From Dehalococcoidia bacterium (GTDB taxonomy: Bacteria; Chloroflexota; Dehalococcoidia; UBA2979): a stretch of DNA of 64,000 bases. The position numbers and the translations under genes are program-made. The notes beneath the pieces were generated by a model, which saw nothing but the letters and a program-made list of their open reading frames with translations, was not told the origin of the DNA and did no database searches. Positions 4,275 to 37,315 of this stretch are shown piece by piece. Every line of letters begins with the position of its first letter. Positions within the stretch are counted from its first letter, which is position 1. The stretch is from assembly GCA_029246995.1 (NCBI GenBank), contig JAQWMB010000012.1:28653-92652 (forward strand), read 5' to 3'.

Positions 4275-6002
4275 TTAATCATCTGATGCATATTCATCTA
4301 GCATTTTTTTCGTCCCTTTATTTTTAATGTCACTTTTTTTTGTCGCCCATGCCGGGAAAGGAAATTGTAAAAGAATAGGAATCGGAACCTGTGGCTGTGT
4401 AACAACCATCGTGCCAGGTTGCAATAATTTTGTTCTTGTTTTAGCTGCTTGCGTGAGATAGCTATATTCGCTTTTTTCGGATTCCGCTGCATCTAAACGA
4501 CCAGTGACTCGAAATGCACTATTGGATACAATACGTGGTTCAATTTCAGATGCAGTTTGTTGTGCACCGATGAGAATGATATTCATTGAACGCCCTCGTT
4601 CTGCTATGTCAACAAGATATTCTTTAATTGAACTTGAGTTATCTTTAGGTGCATATTTATTTAATTCATCAAGAACAATAAAGACAGGACTATTTTCACC
4701 TCCAGCATCTGTTTTTTCTCTGTCGGCAATCAGTTCCTTTAAAATGACTCCAACAACAAATTTCTGTGCTCTCCCATGTAATTGATGGATATCTACAACA
4801 GTAATATTGGTTTGTTTATAATGAACGCCTGAACCTATTTCACTATCGTCACTAATCAGGTCATTAATGTATCTTGCAGAATTTCGTAATCGTCGCATAA
4901 ATGCAGACCATGTTGCCTCATTCATATTTGTCCCTTTGGACCATGGACCAGTTTTAACACCTTCTTCATTGTTTTTGAAATCTGAATCTATCGCTGGTTG
5001 CGTTAACTTTTCAATTTCATCTATTAATTCATAAATTGTTGAGCAAGTATCAATGCTGTTACCAACTTCTAAAAAATCATTATCTAGTTTATAAGCGACT
5101 AAGTTGACTAAGGATTCTATTTGCGTTGTGCGAAAATCATCTTCAGTGAATAGTAATCGAATGTATTGTTTTTTACAAAAATCTTCAATTGTCCAATGTA
5201 ATAATTTTACTTCTTCTCCATCTCGACTTGCTGGTAATTTTGAGTTTTGTCCATTTGGCTTACTATAGAATTGAATATTAGAAAATGGCTCTGGCTCAAT
5301 GCCCATTTTTTTATACATCTTTTGTGAAGTTTCATCCTCATTCATTTTTGAATTTGCTTTGTCTAACCACATCAAATCTTCGCCTTTAACATTAAAAATA
5401 ATTGCGTGCGTATTTGCTCGCTTGTTCTTTTCATGCTGTTTCAAAGAAGAAAATATGCTATGCAATAAAAAAGTTGCGTAACTTGTTTTTGTTGCTACGC
5501 CTGAAATTCCTGAGATATTAACATGTGCTCCACTTTCACCATCTAAGAAATCTAAATTGCCATGTATCACTTCTTCTTGCGCTAAACCAGTTCGTGTGTG
5601 CCCTAGCACAAAAGTGCGATCCATTACGTCTTCATACAATGCTTTTTTGAATTCATTATTTGTAGCTTTATATATAGCATGTCCAGGTGTTGGTGGATTG
5701 AAGATTTGGGGTTCTACTCTTAAGACAGAAACGTGTGCAATTTCTGCAAGCCTTGAAGGTAATTTATTGGGATATAGCTCTGCATCTGATGCAAAATCTG
5801 TTCCTTCCAAACTTTTTTTCATTTCATCAACAATTCCATAAATAAATCTTGGTTCATCTTGGTTTTCTTCAGTAATTTCTAAATAAACTATGTCATCTAG
5901 TTGAACATTGTTGTTATCTTGCACATACAGCCAAAAATCAAGCGGATTTGAAGCAAGTCGCTCAACTCCAATCACAATGCCAATTTCATTTGATTCACTC
6001 AT
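4275..6002 (-). CDS. herA: HerA-family ATPase/helicase
   Basis: N-terminal HAS-barrel-like region, variant P-loop HVNISGISGVATKTS, IFNVKGEDL, Walker B VLDELNKYAP, ERGRS..LIGAQQ. Confidence 0.88.
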   Translation of the reverse strand: MSESNEIGIVIGVERLASNPLDFWLYVQDNNNVQLDDIVYLEITEENQDEPRFIYGIVDEMKKSLEGTDFASDAELYPNKLPSRLAEIAHVSVLRVEPQIFNPPTPGHAIYKATNNEFKKALYEDVMDRTFVLGHTRTGLAQEEVIHGNLDFLDGESGAHVNISGISGVATKTSYATFLLHSIFSSLKQHEKNKRANTHAIIFNVKGEDLMWLDKANSKMNEDETSQKMYKKMGIEPEPFSNIQFYSKPNGQNSKLPASRDGEEVKLLHWTIEDFCKKQYIRLLFTEDDFRTTQIESLVNLVAYKLDNDFLEVGNSIDTCSTIYELIDEIEKLTQPAIDSDFKNNEEGVKTGPWSKGTNMNEATWSAFMRRLRNSARYINDLISDDSEIGSGVHYKQTNITVVDIHQLHGRAQKFVVGVILKELIADREKTDAGGENSPVFIVLDELNKYAPKDNSSSIKEYLVDIAERGRSMNIILIGAQQTASEIEPRIVSNSAFRVTGRLDAAESEKSEYSYLTQAAKTRTKLLQPGTMVVTQPQVPIPILLQFPFPAWATKKSDIKNKGTKKMLDEYASDD

Positions 6003-28939: not shown

Positions 28940-30331
28940 ATGAGACAGTTAGATCTGAAAAAAAATTTAAATAATGTTGGTGATTGCATTATCTATATAA
29001 TGAGTCGTGATCAACGTATTAATGATAATCATGCTTTACTTTATGCACAAAAGCTTAGTCTTGAGAAAGCACTGCCTATTGTTATTTTATTTAATTTTAC
29101 ACCGAATGTTGGGGTGAGGGCACGTGAACATTATTCCTTTATGATAAATGGACTTAAAGAAATTGAAAAAAAATGTGAGCGTAAAAAGATTTCTTTTGTA
29201 CTTACAATTGGTGAACCCATTACGCAAATATCTTCAATGCTTAATAGATTAAATCCTCAAGAGGTAATTTTTGATTTTAGTCCATTAAAGAATATACAAA
29301 AAACACAAAAGAAAATCGTCAACACCAATGAATGCTCATTTACGATTATTGATACTCATAATATTATTCCAACATGGTTATTGTCTGACAAAGAAGAGTA
29401 TGCTGCGCATACAATTAGAAGAAAAGTTCATAAACAACTAGCAAATTGGTTAATAGAACCAGAAAAGATTATGACTAATCCTTATCAATTAAAATGTAAA
29501 ATACCAAAAAATAATTGGAGGAAAGTAGATATTTTAATCAATTCGATTAAATCAAATGGATCTAAAATCGAATATGTTGCTGGTGAACAAGCTGCTCAAT
29601 TAGGATTAAAAAATTTTATATTATATCGACTTGATGCTTATGCCACCCAGCGAAACTTACCTACAAATAATGGTCAGAGCAATTTAAGTCCTTATTTACA
29701 TTTTGGTCATCTTTCATCGCTTCGAATTACATTAAATATATTAAATTCAAGTCAAGAAAGCCCTTTGCTTTTTAAAGAAGGCAAATTACCTTCAATTGAT
29801 GGTGAGCCTTCTAGGCAAGATAGCATCAATATATTTCTTGAAGAATTAATTGTACGGAAAGAGTTGGCAGATAATTTTTGTTATTTCAATAATAGTTATG
29901 ATTCATTAATAGGTGCTAAAAATTGGGCCCAAGAATCTTTAAGTAGACATAATAATGATGTGCGTGATTATAACTACGAACTTAAAGATTGGATCAATGC
30001 AAGTACTCATGATTTAGCATGGAATGCATCACAACAAGAATTGATGCGTACTGGTAAAATGCATGGTTACATGCGTATGTATTGGGCAAAAAAAATTCTC
30101 GAATGGTCTGAGACGCCAGAATTAGCTATTCAAACGGCTATTTTTTTGAATGATCATTATTCAATAGATGGCGGGGATCCAAATGGATATACAGGAATAA
30201 TGTGGTCAATTGCTGGAGTACACGATCGACCGTGGTTTGAACGTAAAGTTTTTGGCAAAATTCGCTACATGAATTTAAATGGCCTTAAGCGTCGCTTTGA
30301 TGTAGAAAAATATATCAATCAATGGAAATAA
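28940..30331 (+). CDS. phrB: Class II CPD photolyase
   Basis: MSRDQR.NDN.AL, SNLSPYLHFG, EELIVRKELADNF, GKMHGYMRMYWAKKILEW, DG.DPNGY.GI.WSI.GVHDR, FGKIRYM. Confidence 0.95.
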   Translation: MRQLDLKKNLNNVGDCIIYIMSRDQRINDNHALLYAQKLSLEKALPIVILFNFTPNVGVRAREHYSFMINGLKEIEKKCERKKISFVLTIGEPITQISSMLNRLNPQEVIFDFSPLKNIQKTQKKIVNTNECSFTIIDTHNIIPTWLLSDKEEYAAHTIRRKVHKQLANWLIEPEKIMTNPYQLKCKIPKNNWRKVDILINSIKSNGSKIEYVAGEQAAQLGLKNFILYRLDAYATQRNLPTNNGQSNLSPYLHFGHLSSLRITLNILNSSQESPLLFKEGKLPSIDGEPSRQDSINIFLEELIVRKELADNFCYFNNSYDSLIGAKNWAQESLSRHNNDVRDYNYELKDWINASTHDLAWNASQQELMRTGKMHGYMRMYWAKKILEWSETPELAIQTAIFLNDHYSIDGGDPNGYTGIMWSIAGVHDRPWFERKVFGKIRYMNLNGLKRRFDVEKYINQWK

Positions 30332-30342
30332 GACTAGAATAA

Positions 30343-30417
30343 TGGTGAGCCCGGGGAGAATCGAACTCCCGACCGAATGCTTAAAAGGCATCTGCTCTAC
30401 CGCTGAGCTACGGGCCC
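30343..30417 (-). tRNA. tRNA-Lys(UUU)
   Basis: Reverse complement GGGCCCGTAGCTCAGCGGTAGAGCAGATGC-CTTTTAA-GCATTCGGTCGGGAGTTCGATTCTCCCCGGGCTCACCA; cloverleaf, encoded CCA. Confidence 0.97.
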
Positions 30418-30526
30418 AGATCTATGTTCCTGAAAAACAACAATACTGTCAACCGATAAATTTCTAATCTGTTAGCATTGTGAACTAGGGGAGTGTTTTT
30501 TCATTATTACTCTAGGAATTAATTGT
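30381..30526. repeat. att-like direct repeat copy 1 (tRNA-Lys 5' half plus 109 bp upstream)
   Basis: Matches 33357-33502; identical over the 37-bp tRNA part, 11 mismatches counted in the upstream part. Confidence 0.95.
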
Positions 30527-30550
30527 GTATACAGATAAATATTATGTAAT

Positions 30551-30572
30551 ACCCACCAATAAACCCACCAAA
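30551..30572. repeat. 22-bp tandem arm-like site ACCCACCAATAAACCCACCAAA (left)
   Basis: Identical to 33229-33250; 9-mer ACCCACCAA repeated with a 12-bp period. Confidence 0.9.
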
Positions 30573-30619
30573 CTATAGAATAACGTGTTTTTCAACTTAT
30601 ACTGAGTTCTATGTAAAAC

Positions 30620-30641
30620 CGTACGAATTAATACGAACTAA
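30620..30641 (-). repeat. Site A: TTAGTTCGTATTAATTCGTACG (inverted copy of the cassette-boundary motif)
   Basis: 21/22 match to the reverse complement of site D (33139-33160). Confidence 0.9.
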
Positions 30642-30725
30642 CTAAAGCAAAACACCATCACAGCCGATGCGAGTAAAAATCATTGCTGTAACAACTGCAA
30701 TTAATAATCTATGTTTTGCTTTCAT
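30642..30725 (-). pseudogene. 27-aa signal-peptide-like ORF ending at site A (probable truncated exported/lipoprotein gene)
   Basis: MKAKHRLLIAVVTAMIFTRIGCDGVLL*; start overlaps the end of the upstream 76-aa gene; stop abuts site A. Confidence 0.4.
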
Positions 30726-30939
30726 TTTTTATAACTTTTTCATACAAGGTTTTAATTCCGAATATAAACCAAACTACTACAAAACCCCACCATAAAGCAA
30801 AAAACCAATCGTTTTTTGCAGTTCCATTCCACTCTAACCATTCAAATACTATGCCTTCCATAAATAAATCAAAAGAAAGTAAAGCAAAGAATCCAAACAC
30901 CCAAATTAAAAAAAATGAAAATGTTTTAATTCTCTTCAT
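30709..30939 (-). CDS. Small two-TM hypothetical membrane protein
   Basis: 76 aa, aromatic-rich FEWLEWNGT.KNDWFF.LWW; abuts upstream gene stop. Confidence 0.7.
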   Translation of the reverse strand: MKRIKTFSFFLIWVFGFFALLSFDLFMEGIVFEWLEWNGTAKNDWFFALWWGFVVVWFIFGIKTLYEKVIKNESKT

Positions 30940-31362
30940 TTAAGTAGCTTCTTTGAAATAGTTGTCAACTTCAAGAGATCTTCTATCGAATTCAACCTCT
31001 GCAGCTCCTGCAACCTCTTCAAGTGGAGAACAAGCCATTTCTGTGCAACCAAGCATACCATTTGAGCAGAAACAATTATTACAGTAGTTATTGCCAGCTC
31101 CTTTTCCTCGCCAATCATCTTCAACGATCTCACCATTAGTCAGCGTGCAGCTTTTGCCTAGAGACTCTTGCTGATAAAGAAAAAAACTAACTCCGACCAC
31201 GGCTGCAATAACAACAATGCCAATTAATGTTGGTACTAATTTGCTTCTTTTTTTTGTTTGTTGTTCAGTAGCTGGGGTAAGTTGTGAGTCTTGCTTAGAG
31301 CCACACTTTGAACAAAATGTGCTTTTGCTATCAATAGGCGAGGAGCATTTTTTGCAATTCAT
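30940..31362 (-). CDS. Zinc-ribbon + TM + pacifastin/VWC-like Cys-rich domain protein
   Basis: CKKC..FCSKCG ribbon; TM helix; C...CNNCFCSNGMLGCTEMAC. Confidence 0.75.
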   Translation of the reverse strand: MNCKKCSSPIDSKSTFCSKCGSKQDSQLTPATEQQTKKRSKLVPTLIGIVVIAAVVGVSFFLYQQESLGKSCTLTNGEIVEDDWRGKGAGNNYCNNCFCSNGMLGCTEMACSPLEEVAGAAEVEFDRRSLEVDNYFKEAT

Positions 31363-31416
31363 AAATTATAGCCCTGAATTAATAATGTATTGTATACAAT
31401 GTGATTATAGCATTAA

Positions 31417-31474
31417 TTAATTCGTATTAATTCGTACGTATTAATTCGTACGATGTAAGTCAAAAAAGTCTACG
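31417..31474 (+). repeat. Site B: TTAATTCGTATTAATTCGTACG-TA-TTAATTCGTACG plus GATGTAAGTCAAAAAAGTCTACG extension
   Basis: Three units of the 10-mer; extension shared with site C; contains the stop codon of the 415-aa gene. Confidence 0.92.
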
Positions 31475-32688
31475 TAGTTAGTAAATGGCCCTGGTTGTGG
31501 CTGCCAACCAGGAGGTGGGTCATCTTCCGGATCACCTGAACGTAAGAATGCATTAAAATTATCATAAAACGTTTGAGTGTCCATGCCTGTGTGTTTTTCA
31601 ATTGCACCCCAGAACCCTAATTCAAGATTGTAAAAATCTCTTGGAATATCAATCCAAACTGTTTGCCAAGATGTCAACGATGCCAAATAAGGAGTAGCCA
31701 TCATAAACGCTGGGCATTTATCGGCATCAGGAGCACGTTCAGTTTCATATCGTTCTGTCCATGGACCCATAGTGAAATCGGGGGTACAATCCCTGCCCCT
31801 ACCCTCTGCAGGGCCTCCCATTATAGCTTGTCGTATTTCTTTGTAAAACCAGGGGTGAGTTACATTGGCAATAGAAATATTACCAAGACCATCTTCCCAG
31901 GTTTGTCCATCAAAAAAAGAGATATCTTGCCAGTGTTGTCGTAACCAGGCATTTTGAAATGCAATAGCAGCACCTTCTACCCACCATGGTGGTGCATATA
32001 TCGTTGTTTGTGGGTTATCTTGATCCCTTTGATAATCTAACCCTCTGTCCAATGAATGTGCTCGTTGATAATGATGAAAGTACTCATGGGCATAATGTAG
32101 TGCTAGTCTTGTTAGATTCTTCCATGGCTCATTTTGTAATTCCTCTTGGCTTGAATCACCATATTGATGCCCATACCAAGTCAGGTTTTTTAGGTCTTCC
32201 AAACAGATGCTAATTGGGTTTGTTGAAGCAGTACGACGTTGACCAGTATTGCTCCCTGTCAAGCAATTACGTTGATCGTGTACATCTGCTACTGTTTTCA
32301 ATCTACCATCTTTAAAATCCAAATCTTTCAATTTTTGAAATATCGGTTCATTGTCTTCATTTGAAAGGTCTTTGTTATAGACAACGTAAAAATAATTTGG
32401 ATAGCTTCCAACTACTTGATTAATGTTTGTATGAACCTCATTAAAAAATTGACGGTGTTCTTCAGGAAATCCTTTATGCGTAACCAGCTGTTGTTTAAAT
32501 TCTTTACTTGGCACATTAAAATCAATACTGATTAATTTATCTAGTGCAGGTCCTCCCCATTGATAAGAGTCACTGTCTTGTTTCTTATCGGAAGATTGCT
32601 TTTGATCAGAAGAAGATTGATTATTTATTGAATCACCACCACAGCCTATAATTACTATACAAAGAATTATAGAAATAACTTTTTTCAT
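31441..32688 (-). CDS. Lipoprotein with HExxH zinc-metallopeptidase motif (gluzincin-like)
   Basis: Signal/lipobox MKKVISIILCIVIIGC; AHEYFHHYQ followed by PWWVEGAA (candidate third ligand Glu). Confidence 0.75.
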   Translation of the reverse strand: MKKVISIILCIVIIGCGGDSINNQSSSDQKQSSDKKQDSDSYQWGGPALDKLISIDFNVPSKEFKQQLVTHKGFPEEHRQFFNEVHTNINQVVGSYPNYFYVVYNKDLSNEDNEPIFQKLKDLDFKDGRLKTVADVHDQRNCLTGSNTGQRRTASTNPISICLEDLKNLTWYGHQYGDSSQEELQNEPWKNLTRLALHYAHEYFHHYQRAHSLDRGLDYQRDQDNPQTTIYAPPWWVEGAAIAFQNAWLRQHWQDISFFDGQTWEDGLGNISIANVTHPWFYKEIRQAIMGGPAEGRGRDCTPDFTMGPWTERYETERAPDADKCPAFMMATPYLASLTSWQTVWIDIPRDFYNLELGFWGAIEKHTGMDTQTFYDNFNAFLRSGDPEDDPPPGWQPQPGPFTNYVDFFDLHRTN

Positions 32689-32700
32689 TGATGATTCCTA

Positions 32701-32721
32701 ACAATTACAATTACAATTACA
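32701..32721. repeat. (ACAATT)3.5 short tandem repeat upstream of the peptidase gene
   Basis: acaattacaattacaattaca seen directly. Confidence 0.7.
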
Positions 32722-32778
32722 TTATAACTATAAACACAACAACATATATCAACATAAGCAAGATATAGATAAAAACAA

Positions 32779-32822
32779 TTAATTCGTATTAATTCGTACA
32801 GATGTAAGTCAAAAAGTCTACG
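32779..32822 (+). repeat. Site C: TTAATTCGTATTAATTCGTAC-AGATGTAAGTCAAAAAGTCTACG
   Basis: Near-identical direct repeat of site B including the extension (two 1-nt indels). Confidence 0.92.
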
Positions 32823-32894
32823 AAGAATATTTAGCCAAGCACCGCAATAAGTGACCACAGCCTTAATTTAATAAAATATTATTGGGCAAATTCA

Positions 32895-33125
32895 TTATAT
32901 TTCAAATGAAAATTTAACTGCACCAGTAAAACTTATAGCAAATAGCACAAGAAGTAATACTAAAATAATTGTGCCAGTCTTGTTGTATGTGCGTCGTAAT
33001 TTAATTGAAGCGTAAATCATCAAAGAGAGCAAACTAAAAAAGATTAATTGGTTTATTAGCATAAAAAAACGCACCTGAAATAAGTGCGATGATCTATTAT
33101 AGCATGTTTTTAAAAGCATATTCAA
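32895..33125 (-). CDS. Small two-TM hypothetical protein (real start possibly ATG at 33062)
   Basis: Two hydrophobic helices separated by KLRR; lies between sites C and D. Confidence 0.55.
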   Translation of the reverse strand: MNMLLKTCYNRSSHLFQVRFFMLINQLIFFSLLSLMIYASIKLRRTYNKTGTIILVLLLVLFAISFTGAVKFSFEI

Positions 33126-33138
33126 TATACAGCACTAC

Positions 33139-33160
33139 TTAATTCGTATTAATTCGTACG
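33139..33160 (+). repeat. Site D: TTAATTCGTATTAATTCGTACG
   Basis: Exact tandem 10-mer; inverted relative to site A. Confidence 0.92.
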
Positions 33161-33185
33161 TTTCTGCATAAAAGCTGAAATAACC

Positions 33186-33205
33186 CTCCCAGCGTCTCCC
33201 AGCGT
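33186..33205. repeat. (CTCCCAGCGT)x2 tandem 10-mer
   Basis: Exact GC-rich tandem repeat in an AT-rich end region between site D and the arm-like repeat. Confidence 0.8.
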
Positions 33206-33228
33206 TAGGTATTTTATCCTCATGAAAA

Positions 33229-33250
33229 ACCCACCAATAAACCCACCAAA
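33229..33250. repeat. 22-bp tandem arm-like site (right)
   Basis: Identical to 30551-30572, same orientation. Confidence 0.9.
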
Positions 33251-33356
33251 GATCAATATCAGTACATATTAAGGCATTACATAGAATATTAATAATATAT
33301 CAATTAACAGATATAGAGAGTGTTATAAATTGTCTGGTATATTAGGTGGATTTGTA

Positions 33357-33502
33357 TTAAAAGGCATCTGCTCTACCGCTGAGCTACGGGCCCAGATCTA
33401 TGTTCCTGAAAAACACCAATACTGTCAACCGATATATTCCTAATCTGTTAGCATTGTGCACTAGATAAGAGTTTTTTCATTATTATCATAGGAATTAATT
33501 GT
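33357..33502. repeat. att-like direct repeat copy 2: tRNA-Lys 5' half fragment (33357-33393) plus upstream region
   Basis: Identity with the tRNA stops exactly at the 3' edge of the 7-nt anticodon loop; no T-arm or CCA follows. Confidence 0.95.
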
Positions 33503-33544
33503 TTTTTATCTGTATATATCGCTTACGAATAATATTATGTGTTT

Positions 33545-34927
33545 ATGAAAAAAAATTTCTATATCAGATCAAAAATTTCTATCATGCTTGTAGTCTTGTC
33601 TGCCTCACTTGCAGCTTGTTCAAATGGAAAATCTGATCAAAATACTGCTCTAACTAATCAATTGAATTCTTCGCAAGCTGAAAGTACTCAGCAACATAAA
33701 GAAAGTAAAGAAGTATTACAAAAAGAACAATCTCTTCCAAATATAACTTATTTTGCAAAAAATAAAAGTGATAGATTTTTTATTGACTTTGAAGATATTA
33801 TTGCAGGACATCCTTATGTTGGAACAAGAAGTCCTAGGCCTCATAATGATGCTCAAGTATATTTTTCAAACACAGATCAAAGGTGGATTGATGCGAAAAA
33901 ACCTTCTGATTACCCTCCTATCTATGCTGTAGCTGATGGTTATGTGGCTCTACCTCAATCATCATTCTATAATGTGGTTGACCACTCAAATGCAGATCCT
34001 CCTTGGTGGCATGTAGCGTACAATTTTACTTTAAGAATAGCCAAAGACGGCAATAGTTATATAGAATTCTTGTATCAAATGGAGCCTTATATGATACCTG
34101 ATATTACGGATAAACCAAAAGATTTCTATAAACAATTCATCTTAGTTACAGATGGTCAATATGTAAAGAAAGGAGATGTATTAGCGTATATGTATGTCCC
34201 GTCTTTTAGCGAAATGACTGGAAGTAAAGGAGCATCTTCCCATATTGCTTTCTCTTTAATTAAACAACCAAGAACGGTGTATGCACCTGCTATTTTTTCT
34301 GAAGAAGTAGTTGCAAAATTTGGTGAAATTTATAGACATCCTAAAGAAGGATGGGAGAGTAAAAGTTTCGGGTTTGATTGGAATAGAGGAAGAGGCCTTC
34401 CAAATGGGATGGGTTGGATGATTAGTGATGAAGAAAACCCATTTGGTGATAATCCTCTAGATGTATTATTATTTGATGGAATTAAAGATGCAGAATTAGA
34501 TCCTAAAGCAATGGCATATCCGAAAGACTTAGGATTTAAATCTTCAAATTTGTTATATAGCCAGTATGGATGGGGAGGCACAATTATAGAAAATATTAAA
34601 ATTGAAGAAGATTGGCAGTTGCTATTTGCTGGTATTGGTGGCCCAATGAAGGTTGTTTTCAAATTAGAAGAAAATGGTCAATACAGAGAAAGTAAAGTGC
34701 TTGAATTACGATCAGGACAAAATTTTAATCTGACTCATAAAAATAATTTTTTAGGAAATGCATCAAAATTTTCTATATTAATTACAGATCCAAATAATTG
34801 GGGATGGAGCTTGGCTTTTGCAAATAAAGAAGCTACATTCATTGCTCCTGGAAGCACAAAAGATATATCTCCTCAATGTCCACCCGGATGCCCACCTAGT
34901 CCAAATCCTTATAAACTTAATAGGTGA
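33545..34927 (+). CDS. Lipoprotein with degenerate M23/LytM-like domain
   Basis: Lipobox LAAC; PIYAVADGYV, GQYVKKGDVLAY, SSHIAF pattern; Zn ligands non-canonical. Confidence 0.6.
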   Translation: MKKNFYIRSKISIMLVVLSASLAACSNGKSDQNTALTNQLNSSQAESTQQHKESKEVLQKEQSLPNITYFAKNKSDRFFIDFEDIIAGHPYVGTRSPRPHNDAQVYFSNTDQRWIDAKKPSDYPPIYAVADGYVALPQSSFYNVVDHSNADPPWWHVAYNFTLRIAKDGNSYIEFLYQMEPYMIPDITDKPKDFYKQFILVTDGQYVKKGDVLAYMYVPSFSEMTGSKGASSHIAFSLIKQPRTVYAPAIFSEEVVAKFGEIYRHPKEGWESKSFGFDWNRGRGLPNGMGWMISDEENPFGDNPLDVLLFDGIKDAELDPKAMAYPKDLGFKSSNLLYSQYGWGGTIIENIKIEEDWQLLFAGIGGPMKVVFKLEENGQYRESKVLELRSGQNFNLTHKNNFLGNASKFSILITDPNNWGWSLAFANKEATFIAPGSTKDISPQCPPGCPPSPNPYKLNR

Positions 34928-34984
34928 TGGCCACAATAATTTAGTACAGCACAAAAAAATATATTTAGAGAGAGAAAAAAGAAA

Positions 34985-35131
34985 ATGGCAAACGTAAGAA
35001 ATGAAAATGGAAGTTGTAAATGCGGCAGATCTCCAACTGGTGATTGTATTGGCTGGCATAGTTTAACGCCTGCGGAATATGATGCGAAAACTGAAGCGGA
35101 AAAAGAAGCAACATTTGGTGACTCTAAATAA
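34985..35131 (+). CDS. 48-aa CDGSH-like Fe-S protein (not in ORF track)
   Basis: MANVRNENGSCKCGRSPTGDCIGWHSLTPAEYDAKTEAEKEATFGDSK*; CxCGxS..C.GxH ligand set; purine-rich upstream. Confidence 0.8.
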   Translation: MANVRNENGSCKCGRSPTGDCIGWHSLTPAEYDAKTEAEKEATFGDSK

Positions 35132-35298
35132 TAATGCTCAATCAGTTTGTTGAAGATTTTACAGCATCACTATTAACAGCAGATAAAACCTCTGAGCCTG
35201 CGTTGGTAAAACATACAGTCCTGGAATAAGACAGTACTATAAAACAGAAGCAGTCAGGCTGTTTATTGAGAAAGAAGTTGTAATTGTGGTATAAGACT

Positions 35299-35340
35299 AA
35301 GGGGGGGCCTACTTATGTCTGAGTGGCTCTCCCCTTTTTG
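35299..35340 (+). terminator. Intrinsic terminator-like hairpin
   Basis: AAGGGGGGGCC...GGCTCTCCCCTTTTT stem followed by a T tract. Confidence 0.7.
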
Positions 35341-35355
35341 TATGCGTTGTAAAAA

Positions 35356-35381
35356 TACGTATATTAATACGAATTAATTAG
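35356..35381 (-). repeat. Site E: degenerate inverted copy of the boundary motif (reverse complement CTAATTAATTCGTATTAATATACGTA)
   Basis: Same orientation and flanking TGTAAAA as site A; ~40 bp from the stop of the minus-strand M23 gene. Confidence 0.75.
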
Positions 35382-35419
35382 TTATATTATGCGAGGTAAG
35401 CTTAGTAACTTGAGTATTA

Positions 35420-36214
35420 TTAATAATTACAGAGCTTAGGTTTCTTAGATCCCTTATACAAACGATCTGCCCAGTTTTGTGACTTGCTCACTAAGTCCGA
35501 ACTTTTTACTGTTGTCATGAATTCAGCAGGACAGAGCCATTCTTCACTCCCACGATTATTTTTTTTCAATGACATGTGGACATGGGCCCATTCATCTTGA
35601 CCATATAGATAACCTATTAACTGACCTTGACGCACAGTATCTCCAGCTTTTATTGTCATCGATTGTAGCATTTTATTGGCAAGAGTTTTTTGTTCAGCAA
35701 TTTTTGTCGCGTTGGCAGGCCCAGCAGATGGCTCAAGGCTGTATACAATGATTTGGCCATTAGGAATTTGCCACGCCAGATTAATTTGAAATGCGCCATC
35801 GGGAGGTCTTTCAAATATTTGAACGAACATGACTTGGCCATCTGAAATTGCTTGAAGCGCAACTTCTTTTTGATTTGTAAAGTAATCAAGACCATTATGA
35901 AATTGAATGCCCAGCTGATTCTCTTGAACGGCAAAAGGCTGAACTCCCCAGTAATCGACAGGGTCCATAAAAGGAGAAACCAAGAGACTTAAAGGCTCAG
36001 ATGACGAAGTTAGAGTTTGTTTAGTAAGTCTTTGCTTTGTGGGGGTGGTTGTTTGATTCTGAACAGGAATGCTTGTTGTCTGTGCAGTTTTAGTTACATT
36101 ATTCACTCTGGGAGATGTCGGTTCCTCTGATGCACAACCAAGCACGACTATGCTGAAAAAGGATACTGCCACAATTATTTTTTTGAAACCCACTTGAAGC
36201 TCCATTTCGCCCAT
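35420..36214 (-). CDS. M23/LytM-family metallopeptidase lipoprotein
   Basis: Lipobox VLGC, Thr-rich linker, FHNGLDY (HxxxD), GDTVRQGQLIG, AHVH (HxH). Confidence 0.85.
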   Translation of the reverse strand: MGEMELQVGFKKIIVAVSFFSIVVLGCASEEPTSPRVNNVTKTAQTTSIPVQNQTTTPTKQRLTKQTLTSSSEPLSLLVSPFMDPVDYWGVQPFAVQENQLGIQFHNGLDYFTNQKEVALQAISDGQVMFVQIFERPPDGAFQINLAWQIPNGQIIVYSLEPSAGPANATKIAEQKTLANKMLQSMTIKAGDTVRQGQLIGYLYGQDEWAHVHMSLKKNNRGSEEWLCPAEFMTTVKSSDLVSKSQNWADRLYKGSKKPKLCNY

Positions 36215-36496
36215 CGATTATGAACTAGCATCTAGGCAAGATAGCATATTTTTCAAAAAATATTCAACAGATTCCATTAGTAAATTAGATATTGGCTTAA
36301 CTTTAATCATTACTGATAAAGATTTAACTACAAAAGAAGTGGGTATTTTATGATTCTCAGTCAAAAGGTTTTTTTAGAAAGACTTTACTTGGGAAACCAA
36401 TAATAAAGACACAGTTAATTTAAGTCAAGCATTGAATTCAAATATTCTAATATCCTTTATGGCTTCTTTATAAAAGCACATTCAATGCTTGTGTGG

Positions 36497-36548
36497 TATA
36501 AAAATAAATGGGGGACCAAACGTAGCTGGTCCCCCATTTATTTTTATA
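36497..36548. terminator. Bidirectional intrinsic terminator with a 22-bp perfect stem
   Basis: TATAAAAATAAATGGGGGACCA-aacgtagc-TGGTCCCCCATTTATTTTTATA just after the CDGSH/pyrE operon. Confidence 0.88.
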
Positions 36549-36559
36549 TTGAATAATGG

Positions 36560-36748
36560 CTAGGTTGTCCAATTGGAACAATCTACATTGATTTCCATTG
36601 TTGTTTCACTAGTAATTTTTACTGATTTATAATCTGTGCTATGTTTTTTATTGTATTCTCTATGTTTATTATCACAATACGGCAATGTTTTACTTAAACC
36701 ACATGAGCAAATACTATATTTTTCATTTTTTTGTAGGTTTATTTTCAT
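36560..36748 (-). CDS. CDGSH iron-sulfur domain protein
   Basis: YSICSCGLSKTLPYCDNKH. Confidence 0.88.
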   Translation of the reverse strand: MKINLQKNEKYSICSCGLSKTLPYCDNKHREYNKKHSTDYKSVKITSETTMEINVDCSNWTT

Positions 36749-36751
36749 TTA

Positions 36752-37315
36752 TTAGGTCACTTTTAAAGGAATATTATCATTGCAAAGCGGACATTCATTT
36801 GCTTCATAGTTTTGCAATGTAATTTTTACTAATGATTTTGATGGTAGATTAAAGTCAATTGGCTGCATTGATCTATCAGCAATAATTGCTACGCCCACTA
36901 CAGTTCCATTTGCATTTTTTACTGCATCAATTGTTTCAAAAATTGACTGTCCACTTGTAAGGATATCATCCACAACAAGTACTTTTTCATTAGGTTGAAT
37001 TAAGTAGTCTCTACCTATAGCTCGACCATTTTCTACTTTTTCAGCAATAATGCTTCGAACGCGATAGTTGCGTGCTACTTCATATGCAATGATAGCACCA
37101 CCAGTTGTTGGCCCAACAATTAAATCAGGCTGTAAATCCTTAGTCAGCTCATAGATATCTTTACAAATTAACTCTGTAAGATCTGGCCATTGCAATAAAT
37201 TAAATTTCTCTAAATATGTATCGGAATGGACACCTGAATTGAGTTTAAAATGCCCACTTTGAATGACTTTAGCATCAATTAGCAATGATCTAATTTCTTC
37301 TTGATTCTTTACCAT
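36752..37315 (-). CDS. pyrE: Orotate phosphoribosyltransferase
   Basis: GHF.L.SG.HS..Y, GP..GG, VLVVDDILTSG. Confidence 0.93.
   Translation of the reverse strand: MVKNQEEIRSLLIDAKVIQSGHFKLNSGVHSDTYLEKFNLLQWPDLTELICKDIYELTKDLQPDLIVGPTTGGAIIAYEVARNYRVRSIIAEKVENGRAIGRDYLIQPNEKVLVVDDILTSGQSIFETIDAVKNANGTVVGVAIIADRSMQPIDFNLPSKSLVKITLQNYEANECPLCNDNIPLKVT

Follow-up and report, generated by a model that had tools for sequence, protein, structure and literature searches.

The window analyzed here is a stretch of 64,000 nucleotides from the genome of a Dehalococcoidia bacterium (assembly GCA_029246995.1, contig JAQWMB010000012.1, positions 28,653 to 92,652 of the forward strand), and our subject is a 2,976-bp insert located within it on the 5' side of an intact tRNA-Lys(UUU) gene. 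From left to right, the locus comprises a photolyase gene, the tRNA gene, a 146-nt repeat (L) that includes the 5' half of the tRNA, insert-specific DNA, a second copy of the repeat (R), a lipoprotein gene of 462 amino acids (aa), and the remainder of a hypervariable island that extends almost to the point at which synteny with related genomes resumes (Table 1). An interpretation made from the letters of this DNA alone (here, the sequence-only reading) had described an integrase-free element that inserted on the promoter side of the tRNA and supplied the copy of the upstream region now found there. We compared the locus with the other genomes of the genus and with metagenomic contigs. The genome under study (G000) is 88.9% complete, and the other three genomes of the genus, among them G003 and the sister species, G001, are 52 to 83% complete.

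Direct repeats and the empty site

The repeat search returned a single direct-repeat family, the L and R copies, which are 92% identical over 146 nt and have a spacing of 2976. A base-by-base count gave 11 mismatches in total, with none in the 37 positions of the tRNA part and 11 in the 109 positions upstream, the first of them at position 30440, so that the leading 59 nt are identical. Read on the plus strand, the identity opens at the seven bases of the anticodon loop, runs through the 5' end of the tRNA, and continues for 109 bp upstream, where TGTCAA at 30447-30452 (TTGACA on the minus strand) is present in the L copy and retained in the R copy. The search and the count together reproduced the whole geometry that had been read from the sequence by eye, from the repeat length and its start at the loop edge to the perfect 5' half, the number of upstream mismatches, and the kept TTGACA.

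The 146-bp block occurs exactly twice in the whole 1.185-Mb assembly (second copy, E = 8e-57), and this tRNA-Lys is the only one of the 33 tRNA genes called by ARAGORN in G000 that has a flanking repeat of at least 85% identity within 100 kb. Neither ARAGORN nor the Rfam tRNA model called a second tRNA at 33357. As for the candidate promoter in the L copy, its -35 element is perfect, the best -10 element has only 3 of 6 consensus positions, and a consensus promoter scan made no call there. Two smaller similarities were noted around the repeats. A 12-nt segment lies just outside both of them in opposite orientations (TATACAGATAAA at 30528-30539 against its reverse complement at 33505-33516). 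In addition, positions 33291-33319 weakly resemble the photolyase 3' end (30305-30333) at a similar offset, with a score of 26 that was reached by 8 of 1,000 shuffles; as a weak hint, this segment may be a decayed copy of the tRNA 3' flank, that is, of the photolyase 3' end plus the tRNA 3' half.

To survey strains, public assembled contigs, which drop rare forms, were mapped to positions 29500-36800, with runs X1, X5, and X12 among those covered; stretches that no contig reached were not counted as evidence. One contig from run X5 (record 25; 1,772 nt) matched 29500-30380 with 0 differences and then 33357-33758 with 6 differences. At its joint, 30380->33357, exactly 2,976 bp is skipped, and 59 bases fit both sides. 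Since the depth of this run in the L-specific bin 30476-30719 was 0, a path through the repeat is an unlikely origin of the contig. The same arrangement was found in G001 (locus L028), where the tRNA, the upstream block, and the 462-aa gene are contiguous without the 2,976-bp unit. In the empty-site form, an R-type upstream block is joined to the intact tRNA and leads directly into the 462-aa gene. Given that the empty site carries the R block, it was the insert that brought the L copy, whereas R is the resident copy, now displaced. The comparison with relatives lacking the insert, which the sequence-only reading had named as one of its checks, has therefore yielded an empty site in two sources, and both the insertion on the promoter side and the supply of the present upstream copy by the element are borne out by it.

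The 2,976-bp unit is a true insertion with a presence/absence polymorphism, and the insertion is recent, as it is missing from otherwise identical strains. A tandem duplication arising in place is excluded by the 11 differences between L and R, set against the identity of the empty-site strain to G000 over the 881-bp flank. The L block was found again, identical at 146 of 146 positions, in the metagenome locus L034, whose adjoining sequence is ca. 80 to 92% identical to G000; the identity falls immediately beyond the block, and L is accordingly no local copy of R. On the other flank, the photolyase gene is not at this locus in G001, which has a 66%-identical copy on another contig.

Table 1. 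Features of the tRNA-Lys locus, in window coordinates
Feature	Position	Strand	Basis
Photolyase gene, flank on tRNA 3' side	28940..30331	+	100% identical over 29500-30380 in empty-site contig
tRNA-Lys(UUU), intact, CCA encoded	30343..30417	-	ARAGORN tRNA-Lys(ttt); Rfam RF00005, 71.1 bits
tRNA-Lys halves	3' half, resident, 30343-30380; 5' half, within left repeat, 30381-30417	-	ARAGORN and repeat limits
Left (L) repeat, from the anticodon loop through the tRNA 5' half to 109 bp upstream (TTGACA included); interpreted as insert supplied, attL-like	30381..30526	.	146/146 identical to L034
Insert-specific DNA	30527..33356	.	2,976-bp unit (30381-33356 or equivalent) missing from empty-site contig and G001
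Hypervariable island on tRNA-Lys 5' side, ca. 6 kb	30527..36540 (end approximate)	.	Content differs in G000, G001, G003, L032, and L034
Module M: conserved head beside upstream block	30527..30606	.	Also in L032, L033, and L034, with different cargo behind
38-nt module, inverted copy at left cargo end: 10-bp doublet TTAATTCGTA x2 plus tail	30607..30644	-	Inverted repeat, 84% over 38 nt
76-aa ORF, predicted membrane protein, no family	30709..30939	-	Open reading frame (ORF) and Pfam scan
140-aa ORF: N-terminal zinc ribbon, transmembrane segment, Cys-rich pacifastin-like domain	30940..31362	-	Pfam PF05375, 29.7 bits; PF13240
Internal module copy (10-mer triplet) between 415-aa and 140-aa genes; breakpoint elsewhere	31406..31453	+	Joint 31408<->35386
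415-aa ORF: lipoprotein-type signal, invariant HExxH...E motif	31441..32688	-	No Pfam/NCBIfam family
Internal module copy upstream of 415-aa gene; breakpoint in other strains	32768..32801	+	Joint 32796<->36254
76-aa ORF, predicted membrane protein	32895..33125	-	ORF and Pfam scan
38-nt module at right cargo end, inverted relative to 30607-30644	33136..33173	+	Inverted repeat, 84%
Right (R) repeat, attR-like: resident upstream block and tRNA 5' half after displacement; does not constitute a tRNA gene	33357..33502	.	R type in empty-site contig
462-aa lipoprotein gene, weak barrel-sandwich (Biotin_lipoyl_2) match	33539..34927	+	Pfam
Phosphoribosyltransferase-like gene, synteny resumes	36752-37315		Genome comparison

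Insert content and the mosaic island

All four open reading frames (ORFs) of the insert are on the minus strand. The Pfam search found neither a recombinase nor a transposase among them. The largest ORF encodes the 415-aa protein, for which 52 homologues were found in marine metagenomes and metagenome-assembled genomes (MAGs), one of them named SAR202. In an alignment of 17 sequences of this family, which included a 319-aa protein from the G001 island, residues H201, E202, H205, and E238 were invariant, a motif that suggests an uncharacterized gluzincin-like secreted metallopeptidase. HExxH lipoproteins were seen in the island cargo of three species (31441-32688 here, L028 9753-10712, and L046 7638-9764). 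Those of G000 and L028 belong to one family by alignment, and the motif of the 708-aa protein of G003 was recognized by eye alone. A C-terminal domain resembling that of the 140-aa ORF was also noted, again by eye, in the 708-aa and a 92-aa ORF of G003.

The intergenic regions of the insert contain five copies of the 10-bp doublet motif that forms the core of a 38-nt module. No exact copy of its 16-mer core was found in the rest of the 1.185-Mb genome, none of 100 shuffles of the window attained five matches, and this combination shows the insert to be foreign. All other short modules of the insert are likewise restricted to this island in G000. The two terminal copies of the 38-nt module (30607-30644 and 33136-33173) form inverted repeats, 84% complementary, as in transposons and miniature inverted-repeat transposable elements. 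On reading the insert flanks, no clear target-site duplication was seen, and no dispersed copies exist in G000, where the modules are all in the island. A 21-nt module pattern had one match in genome contigs, in an unrelated Gelria MAG, which we took as chance. After the right-end module, there is a terminator-like hairpin on the minus strand (33174-33193), although the scan found no more such sites than shuffles did. We also considered that the displaced resident promoter might drive the four minus-strand ORFs, an idea that is weakened by this hairpin (33193-33174).

The sequence-only reading had left out the context of the insert, which is one layer, the tRNA-proximal one, of a mosaic flexible island and is flanked by a partial tRNA. 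In G003, an unrelated-content stretch of 1.9 kb separates the tRNA from the phosphoribosyltransferase-like gene, the G001 island contains the 462-aa gene and then other genes, and two loci from G001-like strains (L032 and L033) carry a rhomboid cassette. The L034 island consists only of repeated modules without genes. There, two tandem units of ca. 210 bp (302-700) stand in place of all island genes, each with a promoter-like hexamer pair, a GC hairpin and T run, one copy of the module, and a tail resembling M; they may represent an unfilled cassette scaffold or encode a small RNA, and Rfam gave no family for the homologous region of the window. The metagenome scan recovered three loci, and all were used. 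The island of G000 also includes a gene for an M23-like protein of 264 aa (35420-36214).

Not all layers of the island have the same history. The segment 33357-34941, which comprises the R block and the 462-aa gene, differs from G001 at 67 of 1,585 positions (95.8% identity), in contrast to the 70 to 76% of the flanking core genes, which indicates that this layer was recently exchanged between species; it is about equally close to L032. In two runs (X1 and X5), a joint at 33241->34933 skips 1,691 bp with the R block and the 462-aa gene. The skipped ends share CCAC(C)AATAA, and the joint lies where the similarity to G001 stops. Further joints in X1 and X12, some of them on opposite strands, are at module copies (31408, 32796, 35386, 36254, and 30591-30641), implying that the 415-aa gene cassette occupies another place or orientation in other strains. 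By alignment, the conserved part of the L032 and L033 blocks has 2 mismatches against L and 2 against R, and the distal 45 nt of these blocks are of a third type, neither L nor R; a block of the L type traveling with module M across species is excluded by this result. Elsewhere in the genus, genes bracketed by modules in G003 (G003:C13, L046) have G000 homologues on six contigs, several within a few kilobases of tRNA genes, and flexible islets adjacent to tRNA genes may be general in this genus.

Other tRNA loci, recombinases, and the origin of the insert

A comparable structure was found at a different tRNA in the sister species. In G001 (L047, G001:C10:30000-41000), a tRNA-Arg(cct) gene at 4457-4531 is followed by a 1,069-bp unit bounded by 68-nt direct repeats of 87% identity (4488-4555 and 5557-5624), which start precisely where the anticodon loop does and extend over the 3' half and the next 24 nt downstream. 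This unit is also integrase-less and contains only a rhomboid gene and the same 38-nt module. The displaced tRNA-Arg copy has CCG at the anticodon position. The rhomboid cassette (757 bp) is 96.2% identical between the tRNA-Lys 5' side in L032 (3676-4432) and the tRNA-Arg locus (L047, 4699-5455), which come from two strains of one species, with the outer end of the 38-nt module as the exact starting point of the homology.

The 75-nt tRNA was scanned against 99 genomes of the family. One other genome (G081), of a different genus and with high GC, had a partial match limited to the 5' part of the tRNA. In this case, nucleotides 1 to 44 of tRNA-Lys are repeated 65.8 kb upstream of the full gene (L048/L049, G081:C6:310478-376348). 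The first 5 kb of the ca. 66-kb interval contain a tyrosine recombinase ORF (PF00589, E = 1e-31), 4.4 kb inside, and a Shedu-type (SduA_C) ORF. The left flank had no match in three genomes of the same genus as G081, and no empty site was found there. This is the sole integrase-bearing island of the tRNA-Lys 5' type that we found, and it belongs to a distant genus and differs from G000 in the extent of the repeat. A search for half-tRNAs in the four genomes with the Rfam tRNA model, which cannot see fragments, gave full tRNAs and one match of 16.8 bits.

The lack of an integrase in the insert, proposed by the sequence-only reading, was upheld by the Pfam results and extends to the whole of G000. 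This genome has two PF00589 matches, of 307 to 317 aa, with XerC and XerD as best models. Both are on other contigs and away from any tRNA, the first next to topA and the second flanked by uvrC and eno, and the NCBIfam integron integrase models scored far below cut-off for both. The profile search found no resolvase in G000. The other three genomes of the genus have one or two PF00589 matches each, all of Xer length.

With these data at hand, we judge it moderately probable that the insert arose by a site-specific insertion of the Campbell type and is now a cargo islet resembling a cis-mobilizable element (CIME) or a tycheposon remnant. A small circular or circularizable cargo DNA would have arrived with its own anticodon loop, tRNA 5' half, and ca. 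109 bp of upstream sequence, and the crossover would have occurred within the first 59 identical bases, between the anticodon loop and position -22. In such an event, the resident 3' half would be fused to the 5' half and upstream block of the insert (L), rebuilding the tRNA gene, and the resident 5' half with its upstream block (R) would be pushed 2,976 bp away, still adjoining the 462-aa gene as it does in the empty site. The insert may be a decayed or cargo-only remnant with both att-like ends or a minimal element served in trans. A site-specific recombinase probably made the junction. An enzyme of the tyrosine integrase type is suggested, because the homology ends at the loop edge at both tRNA-Lys and tRNA-Arg and at the anticodon stem in the recombinase-bearing island of G081. 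The L copy would be the active promoter of the intact tRNA.

Several observations weigh against this explanation. None of the contig pieces listed bridges the right junction (33356|33357) independently, and the circular (attP) junction 33356->30381 is not among the listed joints of the assembled contigs. No symmetry inverted with respect to the anticodon stem was seen on reading the flank to the left of the R copy. The four genomes of the genus, which are incomplete (52 to 89%), contain no non-Xer integrase. The sequence-only reading had proposed looking in viral sequence for the block beside an integrase; our search of viral contigs for a helper gave 0 confirmed loci each for a 45-nt tRNA/upstream pattern, a 22-nt module, and the 415-aa family, and neither a helper nor a vesicle-borne form came to light. 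Besides, L032 has the same head and the rhomboid cassette at tRNA-Lys without a duplicated tRNA half, with only ca. 24 to 27 nt of the block tail repeated, which means that the att-type signature does not accompany every insertion here, and several other strain-to-strain breakpoints lie at conserved modules, as homologous recombination would give.

These last points are the strength of an account without any site-specific step, in which the island was built by recombination between strains and species, either homologous or homology-facilitated illegitimate, and the break at the loop is a chance illegitimate joint. The tRNA and ca. 64 nt upstream are nearly invariant by alignment in seven sequences from three species and would be an ideal anchor; the R block with the 462-aa gene is far closer to G001 than the flanks are; the identity between G000 and L034 drops directly after the fully matching block; the other joints, at 31408, 32796, 35386, and 33241->34933 (the last at CCAC(C)AATAA), are at modules or short repeats; and neither the tRNA-half duplication in L032 nor an integrase in the genus was found. 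We nevertheless regard this account as unlikely. Two independent inserts, at tRNA-Lys and tRNA-Arg, end exactly at the edge of the 7-nt loop, for which the rough chance is a few per cent each, and a third, integrase-bearing case in the family stops at the anticodon stem. Illegitimate joints are, moreover, not expected to restore a complete tRNA together with a complete copy of its promoter. An assembly artefact was considered as well, in which the shared repeat led to the joining of two strain variants from the same sample (tRNA-L block-cargo and tRNA-R block-462-aa gene) into one contig. The G000 assembly is fragmented and incomplete, both tRNA-proximal variants exist in nature, the first 59 repeat nucleotides are identical, and the lack of a piece bridging 33356|33357 among the contig pieces listed would fit. 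Yet stitching cannot create the junction between non-tRNA sequence and the loop at 33356|33357, which some genome must have; all 30 bins, 33160-33403 among them, are covered in run X1; and the analogous tRNA-Arg structure of G001 comes from an independent assembly. We therefore consider an artefact very improbable.

The 38-nt module gives rise to two further proposals, each of which we think has a small chance of being correct. According to one, the mobile units are cassettes bounded by the module that move by module-specific recombination, and the duplication of the tRNA half is a by-product. Inverted module copies bracket the G000 cargo (84%), and a similar inverted pair surrounds the G003:C13 cargo; the rhomboid cassette is shared by two tRNA loci from the outer end of the module onward; contig joints fall at module copies in two runs; and the module is confined to such islands. 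On the other hand, no target-site duplication was seen on reading the flanks, no transposase or extra recombinase is present, and the joint sides are short (30 to 32 nt) in three of four run-by-joint observations. The module is, furthermore, often located 7 to 110 nt upstream of ORF starts, by TATAAT-like hexamers, and may be a promoter or operator that travels with the gene. The other proposal, to which we assign a similarly low probability, is a cassette system free of recombinase genes, in which cassettes marked by the module would pass from the anticodon loop of one tRNA gene to that of another. A docked cassette would then be flanked by a tRNA half, plus the promoter when it is on the 5' side, and the Lys 5' side and the Arg 3' side would share the same rhomboid cassette. 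As only Xer-type tyrosine recombinases were found in the genus, integration at tRNA sites would in this system have to be catalyzed by the host Xer proteins or by an unrecognized enzyme. If true, it would amount to an integron without an integrase.

Returning to the site-specific insertion that we favor, the locus offers a clean case at the population level, with filled and empty sites in otherwise identical strains, and shows the entry of flexible genes into a very small marine genome that has no integrase, transposase, or prophage of its own. Because the geometry is the rarer, 5'-sided one, a functional tRNA promoter has to come in with the DNA. A host Xer enzyme might be the recombinase, or else a helper not yet sampled, and either would bear on the turnover of islands in streamlined ocean bacteria beyond Prochlorococcus. 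The cargo (secreted HExxH lipoproteins, rhomboid, and M23-like proteins) suggests that the trait under exchange is proteolysis, either at the cell surface or outside the cell.

Comparison with known systems

Among the 3,919 islands of the Islander collection (Hudson, Lau & Williams 2015, PMC4383910), 159 have a 5' fragment of the tRNA gene (tDNA), and sites centered on the anticodon, 2,083 in number, are the commonest class. As in those islands, an intact tDNA and a cognate direct 5' fragment are found here in the same orientation on one replicon, with the tRNA on the minus strand and the fragment upstream of it at higher coordinates; the repeat has its boundary at a canonical sublocation, the first base of the 7-nt loop (in plus-strand reading), and the gene is restored. 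In contrast to Islander islands, for which an integrase is required, the G000 insert is only 3 kb long and lacks a non-Xer integrase, and what is restored extends past the gene into 109 bp of homologous upstream sequence.

CIMEs keep their att ends and are missing the genes for integration and transfer (PMC5704250). The insert resembles them in having attL- and attR-like ends, with a putative att function of the repeats, no integration or transfer genes, and a location at a site prone to accretion. CIMEs are decayed integrative and conjugative elements (ICEs) or integrative and mobilizable elements of Firmicutes that are mobilized by a related ICE integrating beside them, whereas no related integrase-bearing element was found in the four genomes of the genus or in viral contigs, and there are no conjugation genes here. 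There is also a likeness to integrons and gene cassette arrays, namely, small and mostly single-gene units, a recurring short module, and reshuffling between strains beside a fixed anchor. Unlike in integrons, there is no intI and no attI, and the anchor is a tRNA gene.

The sequence-only reading had called the element tycheposon-like. Membership in that group was not sustained, given that the defining tRNA-specific tyrosine recombinase of the tycheposon type and the replication module (no helicase or primase Pfam match) are both missing from the insert, and the host is not a cyanobacterium. Duplication of a 5' half with its promoter by tycheposons is not stated in the available part of the preprint (bioRxiv 10.1101/2020.12.28.424599). 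The likeness is rather to the islands in which tycheposons occur, which accumulate partial tRNAs and degenerate elements according to the same preprint. Like the Prochlorococcus islands described there by Hackl et al., the present one is found in a streamlined marine genome, grows at its tRNA-proximal end, contains partial tRNAs and degenerate elements, and shares cargo across lineages. Taken together with these systems, the insert is an insertion polymorphism of a known general kind, with the rarer 5' geometry and in an unusual host.

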